Source of the DNA: an uncultured Actinomycetes bacterium
Lineage (GTDB): Bacteria; Actinomycetota; UBA4738; HRBIN12
Reading direction: 5' to 3'
DNA: 64,000 bases
Assembly (NCBI GenBank): GCA_963751665.1
Contig: CAVVVF010000004.1
Span: 210,141 to 274,140 of the forward strand
The notes under the pieces are model-generated. The model was not told the origin of the DNA, did no database searches, and saw only the letters and a program-made list of their open reading frames with translations. Shown here in pieces: positions 4,236-38,128 of the stretch; positions within the stretch are counted from its first letter, which is position 1; each line of letters begins with the position of its first letter. Made by a program: the position numbers and the translations under genes.

Positions 4236-4241
4236 GCGGGC

Positions 4242-4493
4242 TCAGCCGGTGTGCCGGTGGCCGCCCATGTGATCGTCCAGACGCCCCGCGAGCGAATCCA
4301 ACCGTGCGTCGAGTCGGGCCGCGAGTGCGTCGATCCGCGAGCCAAGCTCCGCCCCCTGGGCCTCGATCTTCGAGCCGAGAGCGTCGATCTTCGTGCCGAG
4401 GTAGACGAAGAACGTGACGGAGATTGCCGCCAACACCGCCAGCGTCGCCCATGTGGCCGCCATGTCTCCGACCATAGCACCCAGGGGTGACAT
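4242..4493 (-). CDS. hypothetical small membrane-anchored coiled-coil protein
   Basis: 83-aa ORF with an N-terminal TM segment (WATLAVLAAISVTFFVYLG). This is followed by repeated IDALxxxI/L heptad-like units and a C-terminal HMGGHRH. GC3-rich codon usage fits the host. No family recognised. Confidence 0.4.
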   Translation of the reverse strand: MSPLGAMVGDMAATWATLAVLAAISVTFFVYLGTKIDALGSKIEAQGAELGSRIDALAARLDARLDSLAGRLDDHMGGHRHTG

Positions 4494-4616
4494 TCCGAGG
4501 CCGGTGTCGCCCGCTGGGGGCCTCGTGTGGCCGAGGCTTCTGCTGGGTGCTCCGCCTGTTCAAACTAGCAACCGCCGCCGACGGGGAAGCTCGGAGAGGG
4601 CGTCGATGCGGGCTCC

Positions 4617-4682
4617 GAGATCCGCCCCCTGCGCGGCGATGGCGCCTCGGAGATCCGCCCCCTGCGCGGCGATGGCGCCTCG
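4617..4682. repeat. perfect 33-bp tandem duplication (GAGATCCGCCCCCTGCGCGGCGATGGCGCCTCG x2)
   Basis: Copy 1 is 4617-4649 and copy 2 is 4650-4682, identical by direct reading. Intergenic, just upstream of conserved module A. Confidence 0.9.
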
Positions 4683-4700
4683 GGGCTCTGGGGCCGGGAA

Positions 4701-4800
4701 GATGGGCCGAAAGACCTAGGCCCCTCGCCATTGCCGAAATCCCCTGTCCAGCCGACCATGCGTAGGTCAAGGCGGTTACTGCTGCCAGGCCGAGTGGGCT
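4701..4800 (+). promoter_or_regulatory. conserved module copy A (palindrome/hairpin + -35/-10-like boxes + CGTAGGTCA + TACTGC box) upstream of pilB
   Basis: Aligns without gaps to 10505-10605 and 12436-12535. Boxes: GGGCCGAAAGACCTAGGCCC 4704-4723, TTGCCG 4731-4736, GACCAT 4754-4759, CGTAGGTCA 4761-4769, TACTGC 4777-4782. The pilB start lies about 90 nt downstream. Confidence 0.7.
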
Positions 4801-4887
4801 ACAGTGTGCATCCACTCGGGCCGACGGGCATAGCAGTGAGTCGCTGGTCCACAGGGGGATCGGACAACCGCAGGGGGATATCTTTCG

Positions 4888-6696
4888 ATGACAAGGGGAG
4901 CTAGCGAACGTTCGGGCCTGGCCGAACACGGTGAGGAGACCGACCAGGATTCAGGTGCGACCGGATCCGACATCTGGGCCCGCCCGGCGGAACCTGTGGA
5001 CGAGCAGCAGCTCAACGGCGAGCGGAAAGCGGGCAGGCTCGGCGATCTCCTCGTCGAACGGGAGCTGATCACCCAGAGCCAGCTGGGAGAGGCGCTCCTC
5101 CAGCAGCCCGCTTCGGGCAAGCCCCTTGGCTCGCTGCTGGTTGAGCTCGGCGCCCTCGACGAGCTCGCGCTCGCTCGCGTGCTCGCGGAGCAGCTCGGCG
5201 TGCCGCTGGCGGACCTGAGGAAAGACGCGCCCGACGATGCCGCCATCGCGATCCTGCCGGAATCCGTCGCCAGGGCGCACACGGCGATCCCGATCCGCAA
5301 AACAGACTCCGGGCTCGAGGTGGCGATGCCCGATCCGCTGGACCGGGCAGCGATCGCGGAGATCTCCGAAGCGGTGAAGACCAACGTCATCGGCTTCATC
5401 GCCCCAGCCTCGGATATCCGGCGGGCCATCGACAAGGCCTATCGAGCGATCACGGCGGTCGAACGGCACGTTGAAGCGTTCCTCGCAACCGAGGCCATCA
5501 CGAGTCGGGCCCTTCAGGAACAGGATGTCGCAGAGAACGCACCCGTCGTCAAGGTCGTGAACCTCATCATCACGCAGGCGGTGCGAGACCGGGCCTCGGA
5601 CATCCACATCGAACCGCAGGATTCGCGGGTTCGGGTTCGGTACCGGATCGACGGCGCGCTCCATGACGTGCTGGCCCTCCCGCCGAACATGGGGCCGGCC
5701 GTGGTCAGCCGGATCAAGGTCCTCGCGGAGATGAACATCGTCGAGCGTCGCCGTCCACAGGACGGGAAGATCGCCATGGAGGTGGACGGTCGCTCGATCG
5801 ACCTGCGCGTGGCGACGGCGGCAACGATCTGGGGCGAGAAGGCCGTGATGCGGCTGCTGGACAAGAGCCGCTCCCTCTTCCGCCTGGACGAGCTGGGGAT
5901 GGAGGAGGACATCCACGGGGCTTTCTCGCGCGCGATCCGAACCCCGTTCGGCATGGTGATCTGCGCCGGCCCGACCGGGAGCGGGAAGACCACCACCCTC
6001 TACGCCACCCTGGCAGAGATCAACATGAGCGAGCGCAACATCATGACGGTGGAGGACCCGGTCGAATACACGTTGCCCTCCATCAACCAGATCCAGATCC
6101 ACGACCAGTCCGGCATCACGTTCGCCGGCGGGCTGAAGGCCATCCTCCGTCAGGATCCCGACGTCATCCTCGTCGGCGAGATGCGGGACGTGGAGACGGC
6201 TCGCATCGGGGTCCAGTCCGCGCTCACGGGGCACCTCGTGCTGACGTCGCTGCACGCGACCGATACGGCAGGTGCCCTCCAGCGGTTCCTGGACATGGGC
6301 ATCGAGTCGTTCCTGGTCGCCTCGGCCGTCGTGGGGGTGCTCGCGCAGCGCCTGGTCCGCCGGATCTGCCCGTCCTGCAAGGTCCCGTACACGCCGTCGG
6401 TGGAGGAACGCCAGTTCTACGAGGACGCGGGCGGCCCCCTCAAGGCTGTCTTCTGGCATGGCGAAGGGTGCAACTTCTGTTTCCGGACCGGCTACGAGGA
6501 CCGGATCGGGGTCTACGAGCTGCTTCGCGTCACCGAGGAGATCAAGGAGTTGCTGCTTCGAAAGGCCCCCCACGACGAGCTTCGAGCGATGGCCGTCAGC
6601 CAGGGCATGCGGACGCTCCTCGATGCAGGGATCCGATTGGTTGCCGACGACGTCACCACCATCTCCGAGGTGGTGCGGAGCATCTACACCGTGTGA
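4888..6696 (+). CDS. pilB: type IV pilus assembly ATPase PilB (GspE-family secretion ATPase)
   Basis: Intact 602-aa ORF with a T2SSE_N-like N-domain (LGDLLVERELITQSQLGEAL...). Also Walker A GPTGSGKTTT and the tetracysteine motif CPSCK...GCNFC. Followed by pilC. The exact start is uncertain. Confidence 0.9.
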   Translation: MTRGASERSGLAEHGEETDQDSGATGSDIWARPAEPVDEQQLNGERKAGRLGDLLVERELITQSQLGEALLQQPASGKPLGSLLVELGALDELALARVLAEQLGVPLADLRKDAPDDAAIAILPESVARAHTAIPIRKTDSGLEVAMPDPLDRAAIAEISEAVKTNVIGFIAPASDIRRAIDKAYRAITAVERHVEAFLATEAITSRALQEQDVAENAPVVKVVNLIITQAVRDRASDIHIEPQDSRVRVRYRIDGALHDVLALPPNMGPAVVSRIKVLAEMNIVERRRPQDGKIAMEVDGRSIDLRVATAATIWGEKAVMRLLDKSRSLFRLDELGMEEDIHGAFSRAIRTPFGMVICAGPTGSGKTTTLYATLAEINMSERNIMTVEDPVEYTLPSINQIQIHDQSGITFAGGLKAILRQDPDVILVGEMRDVETARIGVQSALTGHLVLTSLHATDTAGALQRFLDMGIESFLVASAVVGVLAQRLVRRICPSCKVPYTPSVEERQFYEDAGGPLKAVFWHGEGCNFCFRTGYEDRIGVYELLRVTEEIKELLLRKAPHDELRAMAVSQGMRTLLDAGIRLVADDVTTISEVVRSIYTV

Positions 6697-6704
6697 GGTG
6701 ACGG

Positions 6705-7910
6705 ATGACCACGTTCAAGTACACGGCGGTGAAACCGGATGGCCAGCGGGTTCGCGGCAATACGCGGGCCGACACGATCAAGCTGGCCATGGCCGGCTTG
6801 ATGGACCAGTCCTTCGACGTCGTCGATCTGAAGGAGAGCAAGAGCGTCCTCCAGTTCGAGATCACGAAGAAGAAGCTGCCGCCTGCCGAGGTGATGCACT
6901 TCTCGCGGCAGCTCGGGGCGTTCGTCCGGGCCGGCGTCCCCCTGATCGAGGCCATCGAGGTGATCGAGGAGGAGGCGGAGAACAAGGTCCTGCGGCGGGT
7001 CCTGGCGGCCGTTCGCGAGGAGCTCCGCACGGGGGAGACCTTCTCCTCTGCGCTTGCACCGTTCCAGACCATGTTCCCGCAGTTCTACGTGGACATGCTT
7101 CGGGCAGCGGAGCTGACCGGGACCCTCGACAACGTGCTCGACGAGATCTCCCGCTACATCGAGCGCGATCTCGACGCCAGGCAGAAGATCAGGTCCGCGA
7201 TGGTCTACCCGCTCGTGGTACTGGTCATGGCGATCATCACCATCACCGTGCTTGCCGTATACGTCCTGCCCCGCTTCAAGGACTTCTTCGCGTCGCTCGG
7301 CGCCAAGCTTCCGCTCCCCACCCGCATGCTGATCGGACTGACGGACTTCCTGGGGAATTGGTGGTGGGCACTGTTGGGCGGGATCGTCCTGATCGTGGTG
7401 GGCTTCGCCCTCCTGTTCAGGGCGCACTGGGGCCGGAGGCTGCGGGATCGCACCCTCCTGAAGCTGTGGGTGGTCGGGGAGGTCGTCCGGTACACGATCG
7501 TGGAGCGCTTCTGCCGGCTGCTGGCGTCGATGATGGAGGCCGGCGTCCCCCTCCCCGAAGCCATGACGGTCCTCGGCCGGGGGACGAACAACGTGATCTT
7601 CCAGGAAGGCCTGGCCTCCGTCCGCGAGGCGATGGTCCGGGGCCAGGGGATCGCGGCGCCGATGGCGGCCTCGAAGCTGTTCCCGGGAGCGGTGATCCAG
7701 ATGGTGCGCGTGGGGGAGGACACCGGGTCGCTCGACCAGCAGCTGGAAGCCGCCGCCGCCTACTTCGACAAGGAGCTCGACTACAAGATCAAGAAGCTCA
7801 CCTCTCTCTTCGAGCCCGCGGTGATCCTGTTCATGGGGCTCATCGTGGGCTTCGTGGCGATCGCGCTCGTCTCTGCCATGTACGGCATCTACAACCAGGT
7901 GAATATCTAA
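6705..7910 (+). CDS. pilC: type IV pilus platform protein PilC (GspF family)
   Basis: Intact 401-aa ORF with two GspF-type repeats and three TM segments. Typical motifs are FSRQLGAFVRAGVPLIEAI and FCRLLASMMEAGVPLPEAM. Confidence 0.9.
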   Translation: MTTFKYTAVKPDGQRVRGNTRADTIKLAMAGLMDQSFDVVDLKESKSVLQFEITKKKLPPAEVMHFSRQLGAFVRAGVPLIEAIEVIEEEAENKVLRRVLAAVREELRTGETFSSALAPFQTMFPQFYVDMLRAAELTGTLDNVLDEISRYIERDLDARQKIRSAMVYPLVVLVMAIITITVLAVYVLPRFKDFFASLGAKLPLPTRMLIGLTDFLGNWWWALLGGIVLIVVGFALLFRAHWGRRLRDRTLLKLWVVGEVVRYTIVERFCRLLASMMEAGVPLPEAMTVLGRGTNNVIFQEGLASVREAMVRGQGIAAPMAASKLFPGAVIQMVRVGEDTGSLDQQLEAAAAYFDKELDYKIKKLTSLFEPAVILFMGLIVGFVAIALVSAMYGIYNQVNI

Positions 7911-9364
7911 TGAGTACGGCCCGTTCCAGAGCCGAAAGGAGGCGGGCGGGGCTGAACGCCGTCGCCGCCCGCATGAGGAGGGACGACGGCTTCACGCTCA
8001 TCGAGCTGCTCATCGGGACGGTCATCCTCGGCATCATCATCGGGGCGATCGCGCAAGCCCTCATCGTGGGGTTCACCACAACGGGCGATACGTCCCAGCG
8101 CTTCTCCGAGAGCCATGACGCCCAGATCAGCTCCGCTTACCTGGCCAACGACGTCCAGAGCGCGAAGACGGTCTCGGTCGCGGCGGGCGGCTCGAGCTGC
8201 GCCTCGGCGACGAATCTGGTCGACTTGACCTACTCGGACGGGAAGGTCGCCTCCTATTCCTGCGGGCCGTCCGGGGGTGAGACGAGGGTGACGCGTACCT
8301 TCGATGGAACCACGGTCGTGCTGGCCCACTTCGCCGGGGTCGGCAAGCCTACCGTGACGTGCAGCCCGAGCTGCGGCACGTCCACGCCGGTCCGCGTCGA
8401 CATCGCGTTCACCGAGGCGAGCGGCTACAGCTTCACGCTGGCAGGCTCGCAGAGGCTCACGAAGCCGAGCTCGCCGCCGCCGCCGCCGGGAGGGGGGGCG
8501 ACCGCGGACGTGACCCTCTTCGTGCTTCCCGGGGTCGGTGGCTCGAACACCCCGCTCTGGGTATCAGGGGGCTGCCCACCCGGGCAGATCGACAACCCCG
8601 GCAACCCCAACAACGACTGCACGTCCGATTCGGAGCAGGGTCCCCTCACGCGCCCGCACCTCACGGTCAGGGGGAACCTGTACGTCAACTCGCCCGTGAA
8701 CGGCGCGGTCCGGCTCTCCGGGATGAAGAGCCAGGAGAAGCTCGCGGTATCCGACGGCGGCGATTTCAAGATCCTGCAGGGAGGGACGTGTCAGGGCTGC
8801 ACCCCGCAGACCGTCACCTGCCCCGCGTGCTCGACCTTCCCGTACGGGTCGTACTCGCCGGCCCTGCTCGACCCGTTGCGGTTCATGGCTCCTCCACCTC
8901 AAAGCGGCCCCGGGATCTACGTCCACACGGGCACGTTCAACATCTCGGGCAACACGAGCCTTCCCGCGGGGATCCACATCCTGAAGGCCGGGATGAACGT
9001 GAACGGGAACGCGAACGTCAGCGTGAGCGGGACCGGCGGGATCATGTTCTACAACGAGTCGGGCTCGATCAGCTTCGCCGGTGGGTCGCGGTTCAACCTC
9101 CCAGCCTACGATGCGGCCCCGTACAAGAACATCCTGATCTTCCAGGCCCGCACGAACACGAACGACCTCAGCCTGAGCGGCGGAACGAACGTTGCATCCA
9201 AGTTGGGGGGGGTCATCTACGCGCCGAACGCCGGCCGGGTCGTGCTCGGAACGGGGGGCGCGAACCTCGAGGTGACGGCGGTCATCGCCCAGGGCATCAA
9301 GGTGATCGGCACCACGCAGGTGACGATCGGTCCCCCGGTCGCCGTTTCCATCCCCGGTCCCTGA
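7910..9364 (+). CDS. large minor pilin / pseudopilin with prepilin-type N-terminal domain and ~450-aa C-terminal domain
   Basis: ATG overlaps the pilC stop (ATGA-type coupling). Class III signal ...DDGFTLIELLIGTVILGIIIGAI. Pro-rich linker PSSPPPPPGGG and Cys cluster TCQGCTPQTVTCPAC. C-terminal GGVIYAPNAGRVVLGTGGANLEVTAVIAQGI resembles TadG-like pilus tip proteins. Confidence 0.75.
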   Translation: MSTARSRAERRRAGLNAVAARMRRDDGFTLIELLIGTVILGIIIGAIAQALIVGFTTTGDTSQRFSESHDAQISSAYLANDVQSAKTVSVAAGGSSCASATNLVDLTYSDGKVASYSCGPSGGETRVTRTFDGTTVVLAHFAGVGKPTVTCSPSCGTSTPVRVDIAFTEASGYSFTLAGSQRLTKPSSPPPPPGGGATADVTLFVLPGVGGSNTPLWVSGGCPPGQIDNPGNPNNDCTSDSEQGPLTRPHLTVRGNLYVNSPVNGAVRLSGMKSQEKLAVSDGGDFKILQGGTCQGCTPQTVTCPACSTFPYGSYSPALLDPLRFMAPPPQSGPGIYVHTGTFNISGNTSLPAGIHILKAGMNVNGNANVSVSGTGGIMFYNESGSISFAGGSRFNLPAYDAAPYKNILIFQARTNTNDLSLSGGTNVASKLGGVIYAPNAGRVVLGTGGANLEVTAVIAQGIKVIGTTQVTIGPPVAVSIPGP

Positions 9365-9369
9365 CAGTC

Positions 9370-9825
9370 ATGGGTGCCCGACGTGTGCTCGACGACGAGG
9401 CGGGCTTCTCCCTCCCGGAGGTCCTCATCACGATCGCCATCGTCGGGATCGCTTTCGCGGCGATCCTCGGCGGCATGCTGACGTCGATCGTCGTGTCGGA
9501 CGTGCACCGCAAAGAGGCCACGGCGGACGCGCTCGCGCGGAGCGCGGCCGAGCGGCTGAAGGACCAAGGCGTGGCCTACGTGAGCTGCGCCGGCTTGAAC
9601 GCCTACGACTCGGCGCTGCCCACCGCGCCGAGCTACATGGTCTCCGTGACCAGCCTCGAGGTGTGGAACGGCAACCTGACCGCCGGTGCAGCGCCCGAGC
9701 CGGTCTTCGCGCAGTCCGGCCCGGGATGCCCGGACCAGGGTGTCCAGCGCATCACTATCGTCGCCTCCGCGACCGACGGTCGGGCGACCGAGACCGTCCA
9801 GATCCTCAAGCGGCAGGGCACGTGA
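9370..9825 (+). CDS. minor pilin / pseudopilin (prepilin-type N-terminal cleavage/methylation domain)
   Basis: 151 aa with N-terminus ...DEAGFSLPEVLITIAIVGIAFAAILGG (G-F-S-L-P-E prepilin motif plus hydrophobic helix). Confidence 0.75.
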   Translation: MGARRVLDDEAGFSLPEVLITIAIVGIAFAAILGGMLTSIVVSDVHRKEATADALARSAAERLKDQGVAYVSCAGLNAYDSALPTAPSYMVSVTSLEVWNGNLTAGAAPEPVFAQSGPGCPDQGVQRITIVASATDGRATETVQILKRQGT

Positions 9826-10271
9826 TGGGCGGGTTCCGAGTGAGGCTCCGCGACGAGGACGGCCAGGCTCTCCTGCTCGCGCTCGGATTCATCCTGTTCT
9901 TCGGGCTTGTGATCCCGGCGATCCTCGGCTTCGCGGAGGCGAGCGTCCGCGCGACGACCGCCCTCCGCGAGCAGCGTAACATCGTGTACGCGGCCGACGG
10001 CGCGATGGATGGGGCGATCCAATACGGGCGCCGGAACCCCGCCGTGGGGGCCTACGGAGCCGTTCCATGCATCGCGTACTCCGCCACCCTGAACGGCAAG
10101 ACGGCCACCGTGACGTGCGTCTCGGTCGGGAGTCCGACCAGCATGGATCGCCTGGTCACGTTCACCGCGTCCGTGGACGGGGTGGCCCGCGTCCAGGCCG
10201 AAGTCGTCTTCTTCGGCTCCACGGCCACGCCGGCCCCCGTTCGTGTCATCTCCTGGACGTACCGTCGGTAG
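9825..10271 (+). CDS. pilus-associated small membrane protein (pilin-like hydrophobic N-terminus, no canonical G/FxxxE site)
   Basis: 148 aa. ATG overlaps the upstream stop (GTGATG). N-terminal helix ALLLALGFILFFGLVIPAILGF. Translational coupling to the minor pilins suggests an operon member. Family not recognised. Confidence 0.55.
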   Translation: MGGFRVRLRDEDGQALLLALGFILFFGLVIPAILGFAEASVRATTALREQRNIVYAADGAMDGAIQYGRRNPAVGAYGAVPCIAYSATLNGKTATVTCVSVGSPTSMDRLVTFTASVDGVARVQAEVVFFGSTATPAPVRVISWTYRR

Positions 10272-10504
10272 GTCGCGCTGAAGGACCGATATCCCGCCGA
10301 CGGCGGACGCGACCGACCGGGACCGAACCGTCTATTCACGGCCTCGGTCGGGGGGCGTGCCGTAGGTCAGGGCCAACGTGCGGTTCTACGACGGCACCGG
10401 TGCCGTACCCCTTCCCGTTGACGTGCTTTCCTGGACGGTTCTCGGGTAGCGGCAGCCGGCCCCGGGATCGGCGACTGTGACTGCAAGGGCTGTTGGACCA
10501 AAGA

Positions 10505-10605
10505 ATATGGGCCGAAAGACCTAGGTCTTCCGCGATTTACAAGATCCCCTTCTCGACCCACCATTCGTAGGTCAACACGACTACTGCCGGTAGGCCGACT
10601 TCCCC
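10505..10605 (+). promoter_or_regulatory. conserved module copy B upstream of pilA (perfect 14-bp palindrome AAGACCTAGGTCTT)
   Basis: Boxes: GGGCCGAAAGACCTAGGTCT 10509-10528, TTTACA 10536-10541, CACCAT 10559-10564, CGTAGGTCA 10566-10574, TACTGC 10582-10587. pilA ATG at 10739. Confidence 0.7.
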
Positions 10606-10738
10606 GCCCCAGACCAAACGGGGGAGAGGGGTCTCCCGGCGGCGGAAGGGCCGTGCAGAAGGGGGTGAACCGTCGAGAGCCGGCCAGGCATCGCGCATAC
10701 GTACTAACTGACAAGGCAATCGTCTAAGGAGGGGGTAA

Positions 10739-11164
10739 ATGAACGAGCGCGTAAGGCGCGCAAGAGAGGATCAGGGGGGTTTCACCCTGATCGAGTTGAT
10801 GATCGTGATCATCATCCTCGGCGTCCTGGCCGGGATCGTGATCTTCTCTGTCCGGGGAATCACGGACCGAGGCAATGTGGCGGCCTGCAAGGCCGACCTC
10901 AGTGCCATCACGACGGCGGTCGAAGCGTATCGCACGCAGAATCCAGGCTTCCCGCCTGACCTCGTGCCGAGCCTGACCTCAGGTACCAACGTGTTCCTCC
11001 GTTGGGATTCCGGCTTCACGGGGACTACCGCTGCCGATGGCCCGGCCGGGTCGACCAGCTCTGTGCATGTCGGGGGGTCGGGGACCACCACGTGGACGAT
11101 CACCTATCACCCGGTCGCGGGGACCGGTTTCGCTGCCGGAGACGTCACGACGACCGACTGTTAG
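10739..11164 (+). CDS. pilA: type IV major pilin
   Basis: Intact 141-aa ORF with strong RBS AAGGAGGGGG. Class III signal ...EDQGGFTLIELMIVIIILGVLAGIVIF, a C-terminal Cys and a Gly/Thr/Ser-rich surface region. Confidence 0.85.
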   Translation: MNERVRRAREDQGGFTLIELMIVIIILGVLAGIVIFSVRGITDRGNVAACKADLSAITTAVEAYRTQNPGFPPDLVPSLTSGTNVFLRWDSGFTGTTAADGPAGSTSSVHVGGSGTTTWTITYHPVAGTGFAAGDVTTTDC

Positions 11165-11200
11165 TACGCCTCGGGCAGGTCAGTAAGGAGCCAAACGTGG

Positions 11201-11231
11201 GAGCCCGGCGACCAACCGGGCTCTCACTCTT
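11201..11231. terminator. bidirectional intrinsic-terminator-like hairpin between convergent pilA and pilT
   Basis: GAGCCCGG (11201-11208) - CGACCAA - CCGGGCTC (11216-11223), followed by TCACTCTTTAT. Confidence 0.5.
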
Positions 11232-12331
11232 TATGGGGTCGCTGCCGGCTGGACACCATGCCCCGCGGGAGGCTTCGCGACCTCCTTGGGGTAGATGCTC
11301 CTCGCCACGGCCTCCTCGTAGGTGACCACGCCCCGGGTCACCAGGGCGGACAGGGCCATCTCCAGGGTCTGCATCTGGTCCTGGACACCGGTGGCCACCA
11401 CGTTTCGGATCTGGTGGCTCTTGCCGCCCCTGATCAGGTTCCGCACCGGGTGGGTGGCGACCAGGACCTCGAACGCCGCGACCTGTCCGCCGCCGATCCT
11501 GGGGAGGAGCTGCTGGTAGAGGACTCCCACCAGCGTGTTGGCGAGCTGCACCCGGATCTGGTTCTGGCTCTCCTGGGGGAAGACGTCCACGATCCTGTCC
11601 ATGGCCTGCGCCGTGTCGTTCGTGTGAAGCGTGGCGAAGACCAGGTGGCCCGTCTCGGCCAGGCTGAGGGTGGTCTGGATCGTCTCGAGGTCCCGCATCT
11701 CCCCCACCAGGAGCACGTCGGGGTCCGCCCGGAGTGCCGAGCGGAGGGCTCGCGGGAACGAGACCGTGTCCTGGCCCACCTCCCGTTGGTTCACGGCGGC
11801 CTTCTTGTGCTTATGGACGTACTCGATGGGGTCCTCGATGGTGATGATGTGGCAGGCCCGGTGGTTGTTGATGTAGTCGATCATCGAAGCGAGGGTCGTC
11901 GACTTCCCGGCCCCGGTCGGACCGGTCACGAGCACGAAGCCCTGCCGGATCGTGACGAACCGCTCGATGATCGGCGGCAGGCCGAGGTCCTCGAACGAGG
12001 GGATCTCGAACGGGATCAACCGGAGCGCGAGGCCCATCGAGCCGCGCTGGACGAACGCGTTCGCTCGGAACCGCGCCTTCCCTTCCCAGTTGAAGGAGAA
12101 GTCCACGTCGAGTAAGGCGCGGTAGTCCTCATGGAGCTTCTCGGGCAGGACGGTGAGGACGATCTTCTCGACATCCTCGGGCGTGAGCCGGGCCGACCCG
12201 TTCGCGGGGCGGGGAGTGCCGTCCACCCGAAGGAGCGGCGGAGCTCCTGCGGTCACCAGGAGGTCGGTCCCGTGGAGGTCCCACAGCTCCTGGAGGTAGG
12301 GGTCGATCGGCGTCGTCGTCGTGGTGGCCAT
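11231..12331 (-). CDS. pilT: type IV pilus retraction ATPase PilT
   Basis: Intact 366-aa ORF with Walker A GPTGAGKSTT, a PilT-type core (...HIITIEDPIEYVH...LLVGEMRDLETI...TGHLVFATLHTNDTAQA) and AHPVRNLIRGGK-like motif. Confidence 0.9.
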   Translation of the reverse strand: MATTTTTPIDPYLQELWDLHGTDLLVTAGAPPLLRVDGTPRPANGSARLTPEDVEKIVLTVLPEKLHEDYRALLDVDFSFNWEGKARFRANAFVQRGSMGLALRLIPFEIPSFEDLGLPPIIERFVTIRQGFVLVTGPTGAGKSTTLASMIDYINNHRACHIITIEDPIEYVHKHKKAAVNQREVGQDTVSFPRALRSALRADPDVLLVGEMRDLETIQTTLSLAETGHLVFATLHTNDTAQAMDRIVDVFPQESQNQIRVQLANTLVGVLYQQLLPRIGGGQVAAFEVLVATHPVRNLIRGGKSHQIRNVVATGVQDQMQTLEMALSALVTRGVVTYEEAVARSIYPKEVAKPPAGHGVQPAATP

Positions 12332-12435
12332 GGGCGAAGTATGCCAGGGGGGGCAAGTGCCTCGGAGGTGGCCCGCCGCCCATCGTTGTGCCTAGAGCGA
12401 CTTGCCGCCGATGGAGGGGACGAGGGGCCCCGGGG

Positions 12436-12535
12436 AAGATAGGTCTAAAGACCTAGGCCTCCAGCTATTGCTAGACAGTGCTCCACGGACGACCATACGT
12501 AGGTCACTGGGCCTACTGCTCGTAGGTGGGCTCCT
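12436..12535 (+). promoter_or_regulatory. conserved module copy C upstream of the giant S8/DUF11 surface-protein gene (divergent from pilT)
   Basis: Boxes: AGGTCTAAAGACCTAGGCCT 12441-12460, TTGCTA 12468-12473, GACCAT 12491-12496, CGTAGGTCA 12498-12506, TACTGC 12514-12519. Gene ATG at 12618. Confidence 0.7.
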
Positions 12536-12617
12536 TTGTCTTGGGCACTGATCGGGGGACAAGGGGCCACGGGGGCGCGGCAAGTGGCGCTCGCTTCATT
12601 TGAGAGAGGGAGAAGGT

Positions 12618-24367: not shown

Positions 24368-24381
24368 CCGGACTCCGGACG

Positions 24382-29189: not shown

Positions 29190-30136
29190 CGGTCTCGGTG
29201 GTGGTGGTGGGCGGTGGGTTCATGGGGACGAACCACGCGCGCGTCCTTTCGGCCCTCCCCGGAGCCCAGCTCGTCGCGATCGTGGACCGCGACCAGGCGC
29301 GAGGGCGCCTGGTCGCGGCCGAGTTCGGCTGCGACTACGCGGCGTCGATGGACGATGTCGGCGTCCACGTGGACGCCGCCATCATCGCCACGCCGACCGA
29401 GACCCACCGCGCGGTTGCCGTCCAGGCCCTGGCCCGCGGGTGGAACGTGCTGGTTGAGAAGCCCTTCGCCCCCACCATCCGGGAGGCCGAGGAGATCGTG
29501 TCCGCCGCCGAGGACGCGAATCGCATCCTCGCCGTCGGCCACATCGAGCGGTTCAACCCCGTGTGCCTGGACCTGCCGAGGTTCGTGACCGAGCCGCTGT
29601 TCATCCAGACCCGCCGGCTGTCTCCCTACAGCGAGCGGGTCAAGGAGGGCGTCGTGCGGGACATGATGATCCACGACGTCGACCTGGTCCTGTGGCTGGC
29701 CCATTCGGAGCCGGTGCGCGTCACGGCCGACGTCTCGTCGTGGCGCTCGGCCACCGAGGACCTGGCCATCGCCACGATCGTCTTCGCCTCCGGCCTGGTG
29801 GCGCACTTGACCGCCACCCGCGTCGGACAGGACAAGGTCCGGCAGATGGACATCCTCCAACGTGAATCGCTTGTGAATGCCGACCTCCTGCGGCAGGACA
29901 TCACGATCCGCCGCCAAGCCACCGCGGAGTACCCCGAGTCGGGGGCCCGTCGGCTGAAGGAGGCCTCGGTCATGGAGATCCCGTACCTCGAGCACCGTGG
30001 GGAGCCCCTGTGGCTGGAGCTCCAGGACTTCGTGGACGCCGTCGCGTCGGGCGGCAGGCCGCTGGTCGACGGGCGGGCCGGGGTGGCGGCGCTCACCCTG
30101 TGCGAGCGGATCCTGGACGCGGCGAAGCGGGACTGA
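29186..30136 (+). CDS. Gfo/Idh/MocA-family NAD-dependent sugar oxidoreductase, WbpB/WlbA-like
   Basis: Intact 316 aa. ATG overlaps the upstream stop. Rossmann motif VVVVGGGFMGTNHARVL and EKPFAPTIREAEEIV, typical of the family. Confidence 0.75.
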   Translation: MTVSVVVVGGGFMGTNHARVLSALPGAQLVAIVDRDQARGRLVAAEFGCDYAASMDDVGVHVDAAIIATPTETHRAVAVQALARGWNVLVEKPFAPTIREAEEIVSAAEDANRILAVGHIERFNPVCLDLPRFVTEPLFIQTRRLSPYSERVKEGVVRDMMIHDVDLVLWLAHSEPVRVTADVSSWRSATEDLAIATIVFASGLVAHLTATRVGQDKVRQMDILQRESLVNADLLRQDITIRRQATAEYPESGARRLKEASVMEIPYLEHRGEPLWLELQDFVDAVASGGRPLVDGRAGVAALTLCERILDAAKRD

Positions 30137-30141
30137 TCGGG

Positions 30142-31074
30142 ATGTACAAGGGCCTTCGCGTCGCCGTGGTCGTCCCCGCCTTCAACGAGGAGGCGCTGAT
30201 CGGGACGACCATCTCCACCCTCCCCGACCTCGTCGACCACATCATCCTGGTGGACGACGCCAGCACCGACGCCACCGCGGAGAAGGCCCGGGCCGCCGGG
30301 GACGAGCGCCTCGATGTGATCACGCACGAGCGGAACCGGGGCGTTGGTGGGGCGGTGCTCACCGGGCACCGGCGAGCCATCGAGATCGGCGCGGACGTTT
30401 CGGTCGTGATGGCCGGCGACGCCCAGATGGACCCGGACTACCTGCCGGCCCTCCTCGACCCCATCGGCGACGACGGGTACGACTTCTCCAAGGCCGACCG
30501 GTTCTTCGACTTCGGCTCGTACGAGGGGATGCCGCGGGCTCGCGTGATCGGCAACGTCCTGGTGGGCTTCCTGGCCAAGGCCTCGACCGGCTACTGGCAC
30601 CTGTTCGACCCGTTGAACGGGTACACGGCCATCCGCACCGCAGCGCTCCGCCGCCTGCCTCTGGACAGGATCCGGCGGGACTACTCGTTCGAGTGCGATC
30701 TGCTCGGCTACCTCAACATCATCCACGCGAAGGGCAAGGACGTTCCGGTGCCGGCCGTGTACGGTGAGGAACGATCGGGGATCCGGCTGTTCCGCGCCGG
30801 GCGCAAGCTGCTGTGGTCGCTGTGGAAGGGCTTCTGGCGCCGGATGATGTGGAAGTACCTGCTGTGGTCGTTCTCGCCGATCGCCATCTTCCTGTTCGCC
30901 GGGCTCGCCCTCTGCCTGTGGGGGATCGGGTTCGGGATCGGGATCGGGATGGCCACCCTGGGCCCGCCGGAGGCCTCGGCCGCGACCGTGCTGATCTCCG
31001 TGGGCCCACTCCTGGTGGGGATCAACCTGCTGATCGTGGCCTGGGTGCTCGACGTCCTCGAGAGCCCTCGGTAG
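30142..31074 (+). CDS. GT2-family polyprenyl-phosphate glycosyltransferase (GtrB/CsbB/DPM1-like) with C-terminal TM helices
   Basis: Intact 310 aa with VAVVVPAFNEE...HIILVDDASTDAT...HERNRGVGGAV...MAGDAQMDPDY (DxD-type GT-A motifs). Two C-terminal TM segments. Confidence 0.75.
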   Translation: MYKGLRVAVVVPAFNEEALIGTTISTLPDLVDHIILVDDASTDATAEKARAAGDERLDVITHERNRGVGGAVLTGHRRAIEIGADVSVVMAGDAQMDPDYLPALLDPIGDDGYDFSKADRFFDFGSYEGMPRARVIGNVLVGFLAKASTGYWHLFDPLNGYTAIRTAALRRLPLDRIRRDYSFECDLLGYLNIIHAKGKDVPVPAVYGEERSGIRLFRAGRKLLWSLWKGFWRRMMWKYLLWSFSPIAIFLFAGLALCLWGIGFGIGIGMATLGPPEASAATVLISVGPLLVGINLLIVAWVLDVLESPR

Positions 31075-31086
31075 CGGCCCTCGACC

Positions 31087-31980
31087 TCACGCTCGCGAGC
31101 GGACCTCTCCTCCGGAGACGGCGTACACGATGCCGCCGACCGCGCTCGATGCCAGGGTCACGGCCAGGACGAGGAGCGCGAACGCCAGGGCCAGGTCGTG
31201 GCCGATCCCGTAGGTGGCCAGGCACCACACGTAAGCCGCCTCCCTGAACCCGAGTCCGTTGATGGAGAGCGGGAGAGCCGTCGTGAGCGTGGCGATCAGG
31301 ACCATCGCGGGCAGAGCCGCGACCGGAAGCGAGATCCCGAGGGAGTCGGCGAGGAGCGCGTTCACGGCCACCAGCAATACCGCGGAGACCACCCCCACCA
31401 CCGTGCCCCACCGGACCGCCTGAGGTTCTCGGCCCGCCGTGGCGAAGGCCTGCCCGAACATCCGGAGCCGCGAGGCAAAGCCGGTGGTGTTGTCGGCACT
31501 CGACCACCTTGGCGCCAGCCACAACGCGACCGTCGAGCCCGCCAGGACCCCGATGCCGAGGATCAGGGCCGCCACGATCACCCTGTCGCCGTGGCCCGCC
31601 GCCAGTCGCCAGCCGCACCCGGCCAGCCCCAGGAGGGCCAGGCCGGCCAGCCCGGCCAGCCGGTCGAGGACCGCGGTGGCAAGGGGCGGCGCCAGGCCCG
31701 CCCGGTCGCGGAGGCGGAACGATTTGTAGGCGTCGCCCCCGAACCCCGTCGGCAGGAAGGCGTTGAAGAACGTCCCGACGAAGGTGAGGCGAAGGAGGGC
31801 GGGAGCCGGCAACGCGAGACCCAGGGGCCGGAGGAACAGCTGCCAACGGAGGGCGTTCACCACCAGCCCGGCGAGCAGCACGACGAAGGCCAGCGCCACC
31901 TCCCCTGCCCGCGCACGCGCCAGTGAGTGGGCCAAGGCGTGAACGTCGGCCCGAGCCAGCAGGAGGACGACGATGAGCAC
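31087..31980 (-). CDS. flippase-like / LPG-synthase-TM (UPF0104) family membrane protein
   Basis: Polytopic 297-aa ORF with FFNAFLPTGFGGDAYKSFRL motif. The frame stays open upstream to the TPR gene stop (32077), so the true start may lie between 31980 and ~32055. Confidence 0.6.
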   Translation of the reverse strand: MLIVVLLLARADVHALAHSLARARAGEVALAFVVLLAGLVVNALRWQLFLRPLGLALPAPALLRLTFVGTFFNAFLPTGFGGDAYKSFRLRDRAGLAPPLATAVLDRLAGLAGLALLGLAGCGWRLAAGHGDRVIVAALILGIGVLAGSTVALWLAPRWSSADNTTGFASRLRMFGQAFATAGREPQAVRWGTVVGVVSAVLLVAVNALLADSLGISLPVAALPAMVLIATLTTALPLSINGLGFREAAYVWCLATYGIGHDLALAFALLVLAVTLASSAVGGIVYAVSGGEVRSRA

Positions 31981-32076: not shown

Positions 32077-32742
32077 CTAGGGTGAGGGTGAGGGGGTGGC
32101 GGAGGCGGAGGCCTGAGGCCCGACCGACGCACTCGGCTGCGGCGCCGGGCTCGCCAGGAGATCCTCGGGGATCCGACTGGCGAGCGTCGGATCGAGTCCC
32201 ACGGCGATGGCCAGCTCGGCCTTGCCCTTCTTCGGCTGGCCGTTGTCCACCAGCAGGAATCCCAGGTTCAGGTGGGCCGCCGCGTAGCTCGCGTCGATCT
32301 CGATCACGTGCCGGTACAGGTCGATGGGCTCCTGCCCGCCGCCCTCCGCCGTTCGAAGGATGGCCAGGTTGAACAACGCGGGCACGAAGTCGGGATCGAT
32401 CGTGAGCGCGATCCGGTAGTTGGACTCGGCCGATCCGCCGTCCCCTCGTGCCTGCTCGATGACCCCGAGGTTGTAGTAGGCGAACTTGTTCCGAGGGTCG
32501 TAGACGAGCACCTTGCGGTAGTCGGCAGCGGCCTCGTCCAGCCGGCCCGCGGCATGCGCCTTCAGTCCGGCGGCCAGGGCTACCGAGGCCTGCTCGGCGT
32601 CGCTCTTGCTCTTGGAGCAGGCGCCCGCGAGGAGGACCACGAGGAGCAGGAGGGCCGGCCATGTCCGGAGTCCCGCTCGAACCCGATTCACGCGACCACC
32701 TTCGCTCCTGTCTCGGATGCTACGCCACAACCGGGCCTCCAC
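32077..32742 (-). CDS. TPR-repeat lipoprotein
   Basis: Lipobox LLAGAC after a hydrophobic signal sequence. At least three TPR units (YYNLGVIEQARGD..., ALFNLAILRT..., AHLNLGFLLVDNGQ...). Ser/Pro/Ala-rich C-terminal tail. An alternative start is GTG 32691. Confidence 0.7.
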   Translation of the reverse strand: MEARLWRSIRDRSEGGRVNRVRAGLRTWPALLLLVVLLAGACSKSKSDAEQASVALAAGLKAHAAGRLDEAAADYRKVLVYDPRNKFAYYNLGVIEQARGDGGSAESNYRIALTIDPDFVPALFNLAILRTAEGGGQEPIDLYRHVIEIDASYAAAHLNLGFLLVDNGQPKKGKAELAIAVGLDPTLASRIPEDLLASPAPQPSASVGPQASASATPSPSP

Positions 32743-33105: not shown

Positions 33106-34919
33106 ATGACAAAGTTGAGCGTTAAGTGGGGAAGGCCCGGGATCGTCGCCGGACTCGTCGCCATCGTCCTGCTCATCATGGTAGGAGCCGAGGCGACAAG
33201 AAGCCGCTCGCAGGAGAGCGCCGTTGGCGCGACCCGGGCGACAGGCGCGACCGGGGCCACCGGTGTTGCGGGTGCTACGGGTGCTACGGGTGCTTCAGGT
33301 CTTCCGGGCCCGGCGGGCGTCGGGTCCGTGGGCCCGGCCGGTCCGGCCGGTCAACCCGGTCCCGCCGGTGCAACTGGCCCCAAGGGCGACAAGGGTGCAG
33401 CCGGCGCGAGGGGCGCCACCGGCCCCGCCGGACCCTCTGGTGGCTCGGGCAGTGCTGGTCCGACTGGGGCGACCGGTGCCACAGGTGCTTCGGGCGCTGA
33501 TGGCGCGACCGGCGCCACTGGCGCGACGGGTTCTTCTGGAGCCACCGGCGCTACGGGGGCGAACGGCCCTACCGGCGCTACCGGATCCAATGGCGCTACC
33601 GGCGCTACCGGTTCCGCAGGTACGAACGGTGTGGATGGAGCGACAGGCGCAACAGGCCCCGCGGGGGCGGACGGGGCGACCGGTCCGACTGGCCCGATCG
33701 GTCCCGCTGGTCCTACCGGAGCGACGGGTGCAACCGGGGCTGCCGGCTCGAACGGCTCGGATGGTGCGACCGGAGCAACGGGCGCTGCCGGCTCGAACGG
33801 CTCGGATGGTGCGACCGGAGCAACGGGCGCTGCGGGCTCGAACGGCTCGGATGGTGCGACCGGAGCAACGGGCGCTGCGGGCTCGAACGGCTCGGATGGT
33901 GCGACCGGAGCAACGGGCGCTGCGGGCTCGAACGGCTCGGATGGTGCGACCGGAGCAACGGGCGCTGCGGGCTCGAACGGCTCGGATGGTGCGACCGGGG
34001 CAACGGGCCCGGTTGGCGCGGACGGGGCGACCGGTCCCACGGGCCCGATGGGTCCCGCTGGTCCTACCGGAGCGACGGGTGCAACCGGGGCTACCGGCTC
34101 AAACGGCTCGGATGGTGCGACCGGAGCAACGGGCGCTGCGGGCTCAAACGGCTCGGATGGTGCGACCGGAGCAACGGGCGCTGCGGGCTCGGACGGCTAC
34201 GACGGTCATCGATCTACGGCTCGAACGGCTCGAACGGCTCGAACGGCTCCGACGGCGCGACCGGGGCGACTGGCGCCACGGGCGCGGTCGGTGCGGTCGG
34301 TGCCACTGGGGTGGCGGGCGCAACCGGTCCACTCGGGCCAACCGGCCCGGCCGGTCCAATCGGAGCGACCGGAGCGACAGGCGCCTCTGGTGCGAACGGG
34401 TCCAACGGCTCCAACGGCGCGACGGGCGCCGCAGGTGCGAACGGGTCCAACGGCTCTGACGGCGCGACGGGTTCAACAGGCGCGGCTGGTGCCACCGGCG
34501 CCATTGGCCTCACCGGTGCGGCCGGAGCAACGGGCGCTGCGGGTGCTACCGGACCGGTGGGTGCGACGGGTGCAGCTGGCCCTACAGGCCCGGCGGGTCC
34601 GACCGGGCCAGCGGGGCCGACCGGCGCAACGGGCGCGGCCGGCCCGACCGGCGCGACGGGCCTCACTGGGTATCAGCGGGTTACGGGAACCGCAACGGCG
34701 AGTGACGGAACGAATCCGAAGACGGCTACCGCCACCTGCCCTGCCGGGAAGAAGGCGCTGGGCGGCGGAGGTGTCTCCACGAACAGCGGATCCGGCACGA
34801 TCTCGATGACAGGGACGTACGCCTCCGCCGACGACACGTGGACGGTTACCGGGGAACGACAGAGTGGAAGCGGCAACTGGTCGCTCCAGGCCTACGTCGT
34901 GTGCGCAACCGTTGGCTAA
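33106..34919 (+). CDS. collagen-like (Gly-X-Y) triple-helix repeat protein with N-terminal TM anchor and ~85-aa C-terminal globular domain; frame switch near 34213-34218
   Basis: N-terminus [28 protein letters not shown], then ~470 residues of uninterrupted GXY ([13 protein letters not shown]...). The C-terminal domain is [34 protein letters not shown]...[16 protein letters not shown] 33106 (frame 1) continues in ORF 34311 (frame 3). Confidence 0.8.
33739..34008 (+). repeat. six tandem 45-bp repeats ([15 protein letters not shown]) inside the collagen-like gene
   Basis: Unit GCTGC(C/G)GGCTCGAACGGCTCGGATGGTGCGACCGGAGCAACGGGC starts at 33739, 33784, 33829, 33874, 33919 and 33964. Two further copies lie near 34096-34185. 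Confidence 0.9.
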
Positions 34920-35148
34920 GCCTCCTCCGCCACAACCGGTAAGCATGGCTTGGACGCAATCGGTCTCGCCCTACTCGGCCCCCATCCTCGTCGGCGAAGA
35001 CCACAAGGCCAACAGGATCCTGGTCCAACCGCAGCGCATCGAAGCTTAGGGCGAATCGGCCGGGCCTTCGGCCTAGGAAAGGGATGGGGGAAAAGCCCCG
35101 ATCTCCCGAGGCGCTGAAGGGGCCCATTCTGCCGATACCTATGACGAT

Positions 35149-38031
35149 ATGGGGCTGTCTGCAGCCACGCTGAGGAGACGCCGGTCCCGGTTGCTTGGCC
35201 GGGTGCTCGCGAGCGCGTTCCTGGCCCAAGCGGGCGTATTCCTGATCGCCGGCGCCGGGCCCGCGGCGGCCCAGGTGACCAAGGTCGACACGCAGGTCGT
35301 TCTGACCTCCTTGGTGAACCCCTCGGTGTTCGGCCAGAGCGTGGGGTTCTTCGCCACCGCCATCCCTTCCGATCCGCTGGCCGGGACGCCCACCGGCACG
35401 ATGCAGTTCAGCGTCGACGGCGCGGACCTCGGGGGCCCGATCGTCCTGAACGGCGGCCAGGCGGCGGTCTTCACGCTCTCGCTGTCGGTCGGCACGCACA
35501 CGCGTGGCCGCCGTGTACTCGGGCGACGCCGCGTTCAACGGCAGCACCGGATCGCTCGCCGGGGGGCAGACCGTCAACAAGGCCAACTCCAGGGTGTTGC
35601 TCGTCGACATCCGTCAACCCGTCCGTGTTCGGCCAGCAGGTCACGTTCACGGCGGTGATCCGTCCCATCGCCCCCGGGTCGGGGAGCCCGCAGGGCGGCA
35701 CGGTGCAGTTCCGGGTCGACGGCGCGGACTTCGGCTCGCCCGTCGCAGTCTCGGGCGGGCAGGCCACGAAGTCGACGACGGCGCTCGCGGTTGGATCACA
35801 CGCCGTGACGGCCGTCTTCTCCGGCGATGCCGGCTTCAACGGCAGCACCGGCACCCTCGCCGCGGCCCAGGTCGTGAACAAGGCCAGCACCACCACCTCC
35901 GTCACGTCCTCGGTGAACCCATCGGTGTTCGGCCAGCCGGTGACGTTCACGGCGACGGTGGCGCCGGTGGCCCCCGGCTCCGGCAGCTCCGGGTGGATCC
36001 GTGCAGTTCTCCGTCGGTGGCGTGAGCCTCGGTGGGCCCATCCTCCTGTCGGCCGGAACCGCCTCGATCTCAACGAACACTGTGGCCGTCGGCACCCACG
36101 CCGTGACGGCGTCCTACGGGGGTGGGGCGAACTTCAACGGGAGCACCGGCGCCCTGGCCGGTGGCCAGACGGTCAACAGGGCGGACAGCGTCACCAGCCT
36201 GTCTTCCTCCGACAACCCGTCCAAGCGCGGGCAGTCCGTCACGTTCACCGCGGTCGTGAACCCGAACCCGCCGGGGTCGGGCTCGCCCACCGGATCGGTC
36301 ACGTTCACGATCGACGGGGGCGGTGCCGTGACGGTCGACATCGCCAACCGACAGGCCAGCTTCTCCACGGCGGCTCTGTCCACGGGCGATCACACGGTCA
36401 TGGCCGCGTATTCGGGAGAGGCCGGATTCAACGCCAGCTCTGCCGTCCTCACCCAGACGGTGATCTCCCCTGACACCACGACCGCGCTCACGTCGTCGAC
36501 GAACCCCTCCGTCTTCCGCCAGGAGGTCACCTTCACCGCTACGGTTGCGTCCGATGACCCCGGCGCGGGAACGCCGGGCGGCAAGGTGCAGTTCTCGATC
36601 GACGGCGATCCGTTCGGCCAGCCGGTCGATCTGTCCGGCGGGCAGGCCACGGTCTCAACCGACACCCTCGAGGTGGGTGACCATTCCGTCACGGCCGCCT
36701 ACTCCGGCGACGGCACGTTCAACAAGAGCTCGGGAAGCCTGACCCAGACGGTCGACAAGGCCGACACGACGACCCACGTGGCCTCCAACCACAACCCATC
36801 GGTGTTCGGGCAGCCGGTGACCTTCACCGCCACCGTCAACGTGGATGCGCCCGGCGCGGGGAACCCCGGCGGCACCGTCCAGTTCATGATCGACGGCAAG
36901 GACTTCGGCCAGCCCGTCGACCTGTCGGGCGGCCAGGCCACCATCTCCACCGACGGCCTGGATGTCGGGGACCATGGGGTGAAGGCCGTCTACTCGGGGA
37001 GTGGCAGCTTCAACGGCAGCTCCGACACCCTGAGCCAGTCGGTGAACAGAGCGGACACGTCGACACGCCTGACGTCCGACCACAACCCGTCCGTCTTCGG
37101 GCAGGAGCTCACGTTCACAGCTTCCGTGACCATTGGTTCGCCAGGCGCCGGCACGCCCGGTGGCACGGTCCAGTTCACGATCGACGGCGACGCCCGCCCG
37201 CCGGTCTCCCTCTCCGGAGGCCAGGCCAGCATCACCCTCAGCGGCCTCCCCGTGGGCAATCACAGCGTGAGGGCCGTCTACTCCGGCACCGGTGACTTCA
37301 CGGGAAGCGGCGACTCCCTCACGCAGACCGTCAACAGGGCGGATACCACCACGCAGGTCGTCTCCTCGGCCAACCCATCGGTCGTCGGGTCCTCGGTCAC
37401 CTTCACGGCCCACGTCACCGTGAATGCCCCGGGCGCGGGCACCCCCACCGGGACGATCCAGTTCCAGATGGACGGCTCGGATCTCGGGCCGAGGGTCGGG
37501 CTGAGCGGCGGCTACGCAAGCATGACGGCGTCCGCCCTTCCGCCCGGGACGCACACGATCAGCGCGATCTACGCCGGTGACGGGAGCTTCGCCGGCAGCT
37601 CCGACTGGCTCAGCCAGTCGATCCAGTACGGGACGGGCGAGTGCCAGGGCGCGCCGGGGCGCCAGATCCTGCCTCCGATCAATGCCGGGGACCCGGTCAG
37701 CGAAGTGAATGCCGGCAGCACGGTCCCGGCCAAGTTCCGGGTCTGCGACGCGAGCGGCAACACCATCGGGACGCCCGGCCTGATCCAGAGCTTCGAGCTG
37801 GTCAAGCGGGTGAGCGACGAGGGCGGCGAAGAGGTTCTCCACCAGGCCTGGAACGATGGGGAGTTCAAGTACAGCAACCACGCCTGGAAGCTGAACCTCG
37901 ACACGAAGAGCCTCGACTCCGGGTTCACGTACTTCTGGTCCGTCCACCTGGACGACGGGACCAGCATCGACTTCCGCTTCCACCTCAAGGGCGGATCCTC
38001 CACGAGCCCGGGGACGACCAAGAAGCACTAG
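35149..38031 (+). CDS. secreted Ig-like domain repeat protein (~10 Big_3-type repeats) with distinct C-terminal domain; three indels in the first 900 nt
   Basis: Arg-rich signal sequence MGLSAATLRRRRSRLLGRVLASAFLAQAGVFLIAGAGPAAAQ. Repeats have the form NPSVFGQxVTFTAxVxxxxPGAGTPxGTVQFxIDGxxxGxPVxLSGGQAxxSTxxLxVGxHxVTAxYSGDxxFNGSxGxLTQTV. Frame switches at 35503, ~35600 and ~35995. 36001-38031 is one intact frame. Confidence 0.8.
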
Positions 38032-38128
38032 GCCTGGTAGCCTGGGCGCGCCGCAGACCGCAGGGGCGCCGCATGATCCGGCCACGCCGGTACCTGCCGA
38101 GGCGATGAGGTGAGCGCCGTTCGACGTG

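Follow-up and report, generated by a model that had tools for sequence, protein, structure and literature searches.

Envelope genes between rplA and rplJ in an uncultured actinobacterium

The ribosomal protein genes rplA and rplJ are about 34 kb apart in an uncultured member of the Actinomycetota, and the DNA between them carries genes for a pilus, for several surface proteins and for a putative glycosylation system. We analysed the window around this interval, a stretch of 64,000 nucleotides (G000:C4:210141-274140, on contig CAVVVF010000004.1) of a metagenome-assembled genome (MAG), here called G000, which comprises 2.6 Mb in 10 contigs with 69.5% GC and has a completeness estimate of 83%. 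The initial annotation regarded the whole interval as one island that splits normally adjacent operons. The comparison with relatives points elsewhere: envelope genes have probably accreted stepwise at an operon boundary that has long been open, with the last 20.1 kb being a recent gain and the frameshifts in the interval being errors of the assembly.

Gene content of the interval

Genes of the window were called under the guidance of GC content at third codon positions (GC3), and the products were then scanned with Pfam and NCBIfam (Table 1). The L1 and L10 domain matches (PF00687 to PF00466) are separated by 34,004 bp, which agrees with the spacing first annotated; the start of rplJ has been refined from 38173 to 38170. 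The scans also confirm the gene content first listed for this stretch, and its products are largely surface-related. The leader hairpin ascribed to rplJ is recovered as part of an L10-leader-like element. Its RF00557 score lies under the gathering score of 44, and at the gathering threshold of Rfam the tRNA-Trp gene is the sole match, L10_leader surfacing below threshold only. The ~120 nt ahead of rplJ, including the hairpin, are almost unchanging across eight relatives. Since the leader is conserved, rplJL is regarded as an independent, self-regulated unit, and the rplA/rplJ junction would be the boundary of two ribosomal operons under separate regulation. The boundary would be tolerant of inserts because of this independence.

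Table 1. Features of the rplA-rplJ interval and its flanking genes (positions in the window)
Feature	Position	Strand	Basis and remarks
rplK	3097-3525	+	Left anchor; rplK-rplA orthologues in the genus 92-98% identical
rplA	3522-4235	+	Left anchor; PF00687 match at 3606-4175
Small membrane-anchored coiled-coil open reading frame (ORF), 77 aa	4242-4475	-	Contains local repeats of 33-45 nt
96-nt element, copy A	4698-4793	+	Repeat search; upstream of pilB
pilB, assembly ATPase	4888-6696	+	Pfam MshEN and T2SSE
pilC, platform protein	6705-7910	+	Pfam
Minor pilin, 463 aa	7973-9364	+	N_methyl motif
Minor pilin, 146 aa	9385-9825	+	N_methyl motif
Pilin-like ORF, 149 aa	9822-10271	+	No family match
96-nt element, copy B	10503-10598	+	Ahead of major pilin gene
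Major pilin, 141 aa	10739-11164	+	N_methyl motif
pilT, retraction ATPase	11231-12331	-	TIGR01420, 438 bits (cut-off 319)
96-nt element, copy C	12435-12530	+	Ahead of giant gene
Giant S8 and DUF11 gene	~12600-23749	+	Pfam; ~11 kb
Small secreted-protein gene	23920-24366	+	Single-base insertion at 24131; intact orthologue in L027; right end of the G000/G009-specific stretch
NarL/LuxR-type response regulator	24382-25060	-	Receiver and GerE helix-turn-helix (HTH), Pfam GerE; frameshift at ~24778
YfhO-like GT-C membrane glycosyltransferase (putative)	25224-27507	+	Orthologues of 720-780 aa; frameshift at 26496
DegT-family aminotransferase	from 28090	+	Pfam; three single-base insertions; nearest NCBIfam sugar-nucleotide aminotransferases, e.g. 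PseC and ArnB, under equivalog cut-off
GFO/IDH/MocA dehydrogenase	29186-30136	+	Pfam; nearest NCBIfam UDP-GlcNAc 3-dehydrogenase, under equivalog cut-off
GT2 gene	30142-31074	+	Pfam; nearest NCBIfam polyprenyl-phosphate sugar synthases (AglJ, PpgS, ArnC), under equivalog cut-off
Flippase-like LPG_synthase_TM protein	31087-31980	-	Pfam; TIGR00374 over its cut-off
TPR lipoprotein	32077-32691	-	Pfam
Collagen-like protein, membrane-anchored, (G-A-T)n repeats	33106-34919	+	Pfam Collagen; 45-bp tandem array; frameshift near 34200
Big_3_5 Ig-repeat surface protein, at least 8 repeats	~35149-38031	+	Pfam; frameshifted; orthologue in G009 ~3 kb
L10-leader-like element	38051-38165	+	RF00557, 27.1 bits; ends in hairpin and T-run, 38128-38151
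rplJ	38170-38763	+	Right anchor; PF00466
rplL	38845-39249	+	Right anchor

The left 20 kb contains all of the following type IVa pilus parts: an assembly ATPase, a platform protein, a retraction ATPase and prepilins with the N-methylation motif. By Pfam, the N-terminus of PilB (4888-5200) is an MshE-type domain binding cyclic dimeric guanosine monophosphate (c-di-GMP), and the pilB-pilC stretch matches NF053729 over its cut-off. The set is a second, accessory one, since G000 also has a core locus with pilB-pilT-pilC on contig C1. Nearly every genus member has the core pilB, which shares ~44% identity with the island copy. In the closest relative of G000, the MAG G009 (rplA 97-98% identical), the counterparts of the island pilB and pilC are 84-88% identical, compared with only 44% for the core paralogue on C1, and the prepilin genes (7973-11164) show a mere 47-79% identity. 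A Peptidase_A24 prepilin peptidase is not found in the island cluster; the single genomic copy lies at C1:276896, near the core locus. PilMNO alignment-complex domains did not turn up in the ORFs scanned. The left half would build a c-di-GMP-responsive retractile pilus that relies on a single prepilin peptidase encoded elsewhere. In its parts (MshEN PilB, PilC, PilT, one major and several minor prepilins, G|FTLIE motif), it resembles type IVa pili with a PilB/PilT pair and MshE-type c-di-GMP control. It differs from typical sets in having no in-cluster prepilin peptidase, in being accessory to a core pilB-pilT-pilC and in its linkage, physical and probably also regulatory, to the giant S8/DUF11 protein.

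This linkage is seen in a 96-nt element with the conserved core AAAGACCTAGG. The element has three copies in the whole genome and no others, and all three are at matching positions in G009, so the pilus set and the giant protein are probably one regulatory unit marked by it. A sigma-70 promoter scan of 4100-12700 returned none, a scan that is uninformative for a high-GC actinobacterium. The 77-aa ORF next to rplA is absent from G009, in which the rplA-pilB spacer is only ~230 bp.

The giant protein consists of a signal anchor, a Pro/Thr/Ser linker, an I9-like propeptide, an S8 subtilase, ~16 tandem DUF11 domains, an Ig-like segment and a C-terminal domain. Its gene is in at least ten frame pieces in this assembly. 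The catalytic Asp, His and Ser of the subtilase are all encoded, since the DTG, HGT and GTSAA motifs align with those of an intact homologue in the MAG G012, though across shifted frames. The DUF11-coding DNA within 16101-22178 forms two tandem arrays, 384 bp x 10.3 (96% identity) and 364 bp x 6.1 (92%), which indicate a recent expansion of the repeats with a real copy number that is uncertain. The tandem arrays are the reason for the extreme tetranucleotide and codon profile of this gene and for the breaks of short-read relatives within it.

The right half, 13.7 kb, begins with a regulator gene and a conserved membrane protein that looks like a GT-C glycosyltransferase. The Pfam match to YfhO (PF09586) reaches 23.2 and 27.9 bits, under the gathering cut-off of 28.5, and covers the C-terminal 40-50 residues only. 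An NCBIfam scan of this protein gave no match, and its profile found nothing meaningful among PDB sequences. In an AlphaFold2 model with a predicted local distance difference test (pLDDT) score of 61, the top eight Foldseek matches are all GT-C enzymes (AglB, AftA, PglB, ArnT, EmbC) with TM-scores of 0.3-0.5.

Together with its neighbours, this protein would fit a polyprenyl-phosphate-linked extracytoplasmic glycosylation system. An amino sugar would be made, loaded onto polyprenyl phosphate and flipped, and the GT-C enzyme would then move it to an extracytoplasmic acceptor. The combination of an aminotransferase or dehydrogenase, a GT2 enzyme, a flippase-like protein and a GT-C-fold enzyme is that of ArnB/ArnC/ArnEF/ArnT, of CsbB/GtcA/YfhO and of the mycobacterial PpgS/Rv3779. 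Unlike those systems, the present one sits between ribosomal operons, and of its domains only the flippase-like one reaches an equivalog or gathering cut-off. Candidate acceptors are the Thr-rich collagen-like protein, the pilins and the giant protein. Bacterial collagen-like fibres can be glycosylated, and by this analogy the (Gly-Ala-Thr)n collagen-like protein may be an attractive candidate.

Three minus-strand ORFs in the right half (27396-29105, 34846-35610 and 35471-36073) were rejected as genes; they are probably antisense shadows of the DegT and Big_3_5 genes. At a non-ribosomal locus of three Acidimicrobiia MAGs (L046, L051 and L073), a related pilC-pilB pair lies ~5 kb from a group of TPR, YfhO-like GT-C and GT2 genes. 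This proximity hints at a functional link of pili with the glycosylation system.

The interval in relatives

The relatives compared here are public genomes of uncultured 'Actinomycetota bacterium' MAGs from soil and sediment, many of them out of one long-read soil survey. We compared 40 relatives from the genus, the family and the order of G000. Some have rplA directly next to rplJ, in others 1.4-5.7 kb separates the two genes, and in still others they are on separate contigs; the spacing in same-order relatives is 0.17-5.7 kb. Several family members have one conserved gene in the gap, encoding the polytopic membrane protein of 720-780 aa described above as GT-C. A profile of this protein retrieved 80 loci from public genomes. 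The GT-C gene lies directly downstream of rplA in 44 of the 80 loci and between rplA and rplJ in 32, all in MAGs, where the gap measures 2.3-9.6 kb. In the smallest gaps the GT-C gene stands alone, a TPR gene is added in most gaps from ~3-4 kb, and collagen-like genes appear at 8-9 kb. In a maximum-likelihood tree of the GT-C proteins, 49 sequences form a clade with 100/99 support, and nearly all of those with sufficient flank are at the ribosomal locus. The GT-C protein of the window falls in a separate clade, also with 100/99 support, whose members travel with the DegT, GFO, GT2 and flippase-like genes (the glyco-module). Both paralogues stand in tandem inside the rplA-rplJ gap of one MAG (L029), the glyco-module is ~19 kb off the ribosomal locus in another, and in G000 the module-type GT-C copy is the sole one.

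The same boundary is open in much of the phylum. In an even sample of Actinomycetota genomes, the L1 and L10 domains share a contig in 128. The distance between them is <0.9 kb in 84 and >1.1 kb in 44 (34%), and at least 9 kb in 11. In Mycobacterium tuberculosis, the mmaA1-4/lipG cell-envelope genes lie between rplA (Rv0641) and rplJ (Rv0651). A recent paper on the rplKAJL-rpoBC locus (PMC12993453) records genes that keep rplKA and rplJL apart in Actinomyces israelii and Bradyrhizobium diazoefficiens. As at other interrupted boundaries, non-ribosomal and often envelope genes are placed exactly between rplA and rplJ in G000, rplK-rplA and rplJ-rplL stay paired, and rplJ probably keeps its leader. 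The 34-kb gap is larger than most, with five sampled genomes larger still (49, 54, 187, 192 and 812 kb). The content also differs from that of other interrupted boundaries, as it includes a GT-C glycosylation module, collagen-like and Ig-repeat proteins, a second pilus set and a giant subtilase-adhesin. From these comparisons of gene order, the split of rplA and rplJ appears to be old and lineage-typical across an order-level clade of uncultured soil Actinomycetota. The claim that the whole 34 kb is one island splitting adjacent operons therefore fails, since the split is ancestral and widespread, with GT-C genes in the gap of 32 MAGs and a distance above 1 kb in about a third of the phylum sample.

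Within the genus of G000, three members (G002, G004 and G010) have a 13-16 kb version of the gap. Their contigs, anchored at rplA or rplJ, contain rplA, a convergent regulator gene, GT-C, DegT, GFO, GT2, the flippase-like gene, the TPR gene and the collagen-like gene. The stop codons of rplA and the regulator gene are 13-31 nt apart, and neither pilus genes nor the small secreted-protein gene (23920-24366) are found at this locus in the three genomes. In one contig of G010 (L004, G010:C52), rplA is 93% identical to that of the window and rplJ and rplL only ~72%, and a second contig of the bin has an rplJ of 92%, which suggests a mixed bin or recombination at the locus. The part next to rplJ differs between genomes: the Big_3_5 protein is encoded there in G000 and G009, and G004 and G003 have signalling genes, namely HD-GYP (c-di-GMP phosphodiesterase) response regulators (L006 8714-9799; L003 9182-10306) and PAS histidine kinases.

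G000 and G009 alone therefore share 4236-24381 (20.1 kb), and an insertion, as proposed initially for the whole interval, is tenable for this part and not for the right half, which is common to the genus members. Only 4236-24381 has a patchy distribution among close relatives. In G009, one contig carries rplA-pilB-pilC-pilins-pilT and the start of the giant gene, and another carries collagen-Big_3_5-rplJ. Of 12 genus genomes, two have the island-type pilB, as do 12 of the 294 genomes of the class; the ten copies outside G000 and G009 are 68-73% identical. Five of these ten were inspected with their flanks. All five lie away from the ribosomal locus and have the same genes around them, arranged as pilB-pilC-pilA followed by convergent pilT-orf149-pilin146-pilin463. 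In one of the five (G012), the module adjoins a homologous giant S8 gene.

The composition of 4.2-38.1 kb is native except for the giant gene, the only outlier within the block. The pilus genes lie at the 77th-82nd percentile in tetranucleotide usage and at the 87th in codon usage, and the right half lies at the 55th-61st percentile. The view that this is not an obvious mobile element is borne out. Pfam and NCBIfam scans of the ORFs across 4236-38128 revealed no integrase, recombinase or transposase domain, and blastn of one insert boundary against the other gave no significant match and hence no flanking repeats. The single tRNA gene of the window, tRNA-Trp (92-166), is in its customary place ahead of secE. 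The lack of an integrase, a target duplication and a compositional trace leads us to infer that the stretch was relocated, or exchanged by homologous recombination, within the family and was not brought in by a mobile element. On the simplest reading, an accessory module already present in the family would have been moved or recombined into a small convergent spacer.

Stepwise accretion and its alternatives

The order of gap sizes and gene sets suggests how the interval may have grown. The boundary would have been open for long in this clade and permanently host to a YfhO-like GT-C gene. First, this gene would have stood by itself (~2.4 kb). Second, the TPR lipoprotein gene would have joined it (4-5 kb), and third, the collagen-like gene would have been added to both (8-9 kb). 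In the genus of the window, a paralogous GT-C gene may then have arrived with the dehydrogenase, the aminotransferase, the polyprenyl-phosphate GT2 enzyme, the flippase-like protein and the NarL-type regulator (13-16 kb). Finally, in the ancestor of G000 and G009, the pilus and giant S8/DUF11 module would have landed in the 13-31-nt spacer between rplA and the regulator gene, adding 20.1 kb.

Several points weigh against this account. The single gain is deduced from outgroups, and without a resolved tree of the genus one loss is nearly as parsimonious. The join between the 3' end of the giant gene (23749) and the small secreted-protein gene (23920) is seen in this assembly alone, and a DNA search of G009 with 21800-25300 gave paralogous matches only. 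The model behind the GT-C assignment is of low confidence (pLDDT 61) and the accompanying Pfam match is below cut-off, and the glycosylation pathway and its acceptor are putative. Errors are also spread unevenly: the pilus genes (7.4 kb) and rpoBC have none, the 13.7-kb right half has at least eight, and some of the disruptions in the interval could be real.

The first alternative is that the genus ancestor already had the pilus and giant module, which was then cleanly deleted in G004, G002 and G010. One loss would equal one gain if G000 and G009 were sister to all the others, and the junction evidently turns over, since the loci L025 and L027 have other genes upstream of the regulator. However, other genera of the family lack pilus genes in the gap and have the module elsewhere, and the three relatives share the same tight 13-31-nt spacer with no remnant. 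We regard such a deletion as unlikely.

The second alternative concerns the disrupted genes. Frameshifts or stops break the giant, response regulator, GT-C, DegT, collagen-like, Big_3_5 and small secreted-protein genes, and a decaying island, in which those in the first six are true pseudogenes, would account for disruptions that are far denser there than in rpoBC or the pilus genes. However, essential genes of the window are disrupted likewise: rplB (55373-56204) and rpsL (49123-49500) by +1 frameshifts, and fusA by an in-frame TAG (50724-50726). These must be consensus errors of the assembly, because a living cell cannot lack rplB, rpsL and fusA. A direct comparison is available over 23907-30006, where the short-read contig L027 is 86-88% identical with intact ORFs. 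Compared with this contig, single bases are inserted at seven coding positions of the window, among them 24131, 24778, 26496, 28288, 28483 and 28559, and all seven differences are +1 in the window. The error-rich parts are moreover the GC-richest ones or tandem repeats of 96% identity, which are the hardest for consensus calling. Reassignment of a stop codon was considered for the in-frame stops and rejected, since most of the disruptions are +1 frameshifts and only scattered genes are hit. The disruptions in the interval are thus very probably assembly artefacts and not pseudogenes, and decay of the island is slightly less probable even than the deletion. Consensus errors occur throughout the genome and may have depressed the completeness estimate, and pseudogene calls in G000 are unsafe until these single-base errors, found even in essential genes, are resolved. 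The contig L027 (VBMI01000004.1) is labelled 'Methanobacteriota archaeon' in spite of its 86-88% DNA identity to this actinobacterial locus, and it is almost certainly mis-binned.

Third, the entire 34 kb could have been acquired horizontally as one surface island inserted between rplKA and rplJL. The block is large and functionally coherent, and only a few percent of the phylum sample have a gap of this size or more. Against this, the right 13.7 kb matches the three genus members in order and orientation with the left half missing there, 32 related MAGs have a GT-C gene in the gap, and the right half is native in composition, so that a single acquisition is highly improbable. Least probable of all is a chimeric join that put unrelated DNA between rplA and rplJ: the MAG is error-prone, incomplete and in 10 contigs, but two independent G009 contigs confirm both outer junctions by reproducing rplA-pilB and Big_3_5-rplJ, L027 reproduces 23907-30006, and the right half is joined to rplA and to rplJ in G002, G004 and G010.

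Other junctions of the ribosomal block and significance

The conserved ribosomal block had also been described as interrupted at other junctions. The insert at 1586-2857 is specific to G000: an AAA_14/DUF4143 ATPase gene on the minus strand lies between nusG and rplK in this genome only. These two genes are adjacent in three genus relatives, and in some other members of the family another insert, of 2.3 kb, takes this place. The interval 39336-39755 is not such an interruption, since its small ORF is conserved in nearly all relatives. This ORF (39486-39755) encodes 89 aa without a family match, separates rplL from rpoB with 48-89% identity in nearly every relative examined and is a conserved, clade-specific small gene inside the ribosomal/RNAP (RNA polymerase) cluster. 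Between rpoC and rpsL, one long minus-strand ORF (47341-49314) combines an inositol-monophosphatase domain with a MarR HTH and may be two genes fused through an assembly error.

In summary, the rplA-rplJ interval of G000 is a large new example of the known genome plasticity at this boundary. In Actinomycetota, a gene string described in textbooks as universally conserved is routinely interrupted at one of its operon boundaries, and a large insert at the rplA/rplJ boundary is by itself no evidence of a mobile island. A further idea goes beyond a merely permissive site: selection may have maintained the boundary over a long time as a slot for the expression of envelope genes, in which the clade would keep its GT-C gene and would have recruited successively the TPR protein, the collagen-like fibre, the donor pathway, the second pilus and the giant subtilase-adhesin. 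We consider this doubtful, a little less so than the alternatives discussed above. If true, it would couple envelope glycosylation to ribosomal-operon transcription, with the L10 leader as an insulator. The GT-C gene resident across the clade and the pilus/giant-subtilase module with its 96-nt element are leads for the cell-surface biology of soil actinobacteria.

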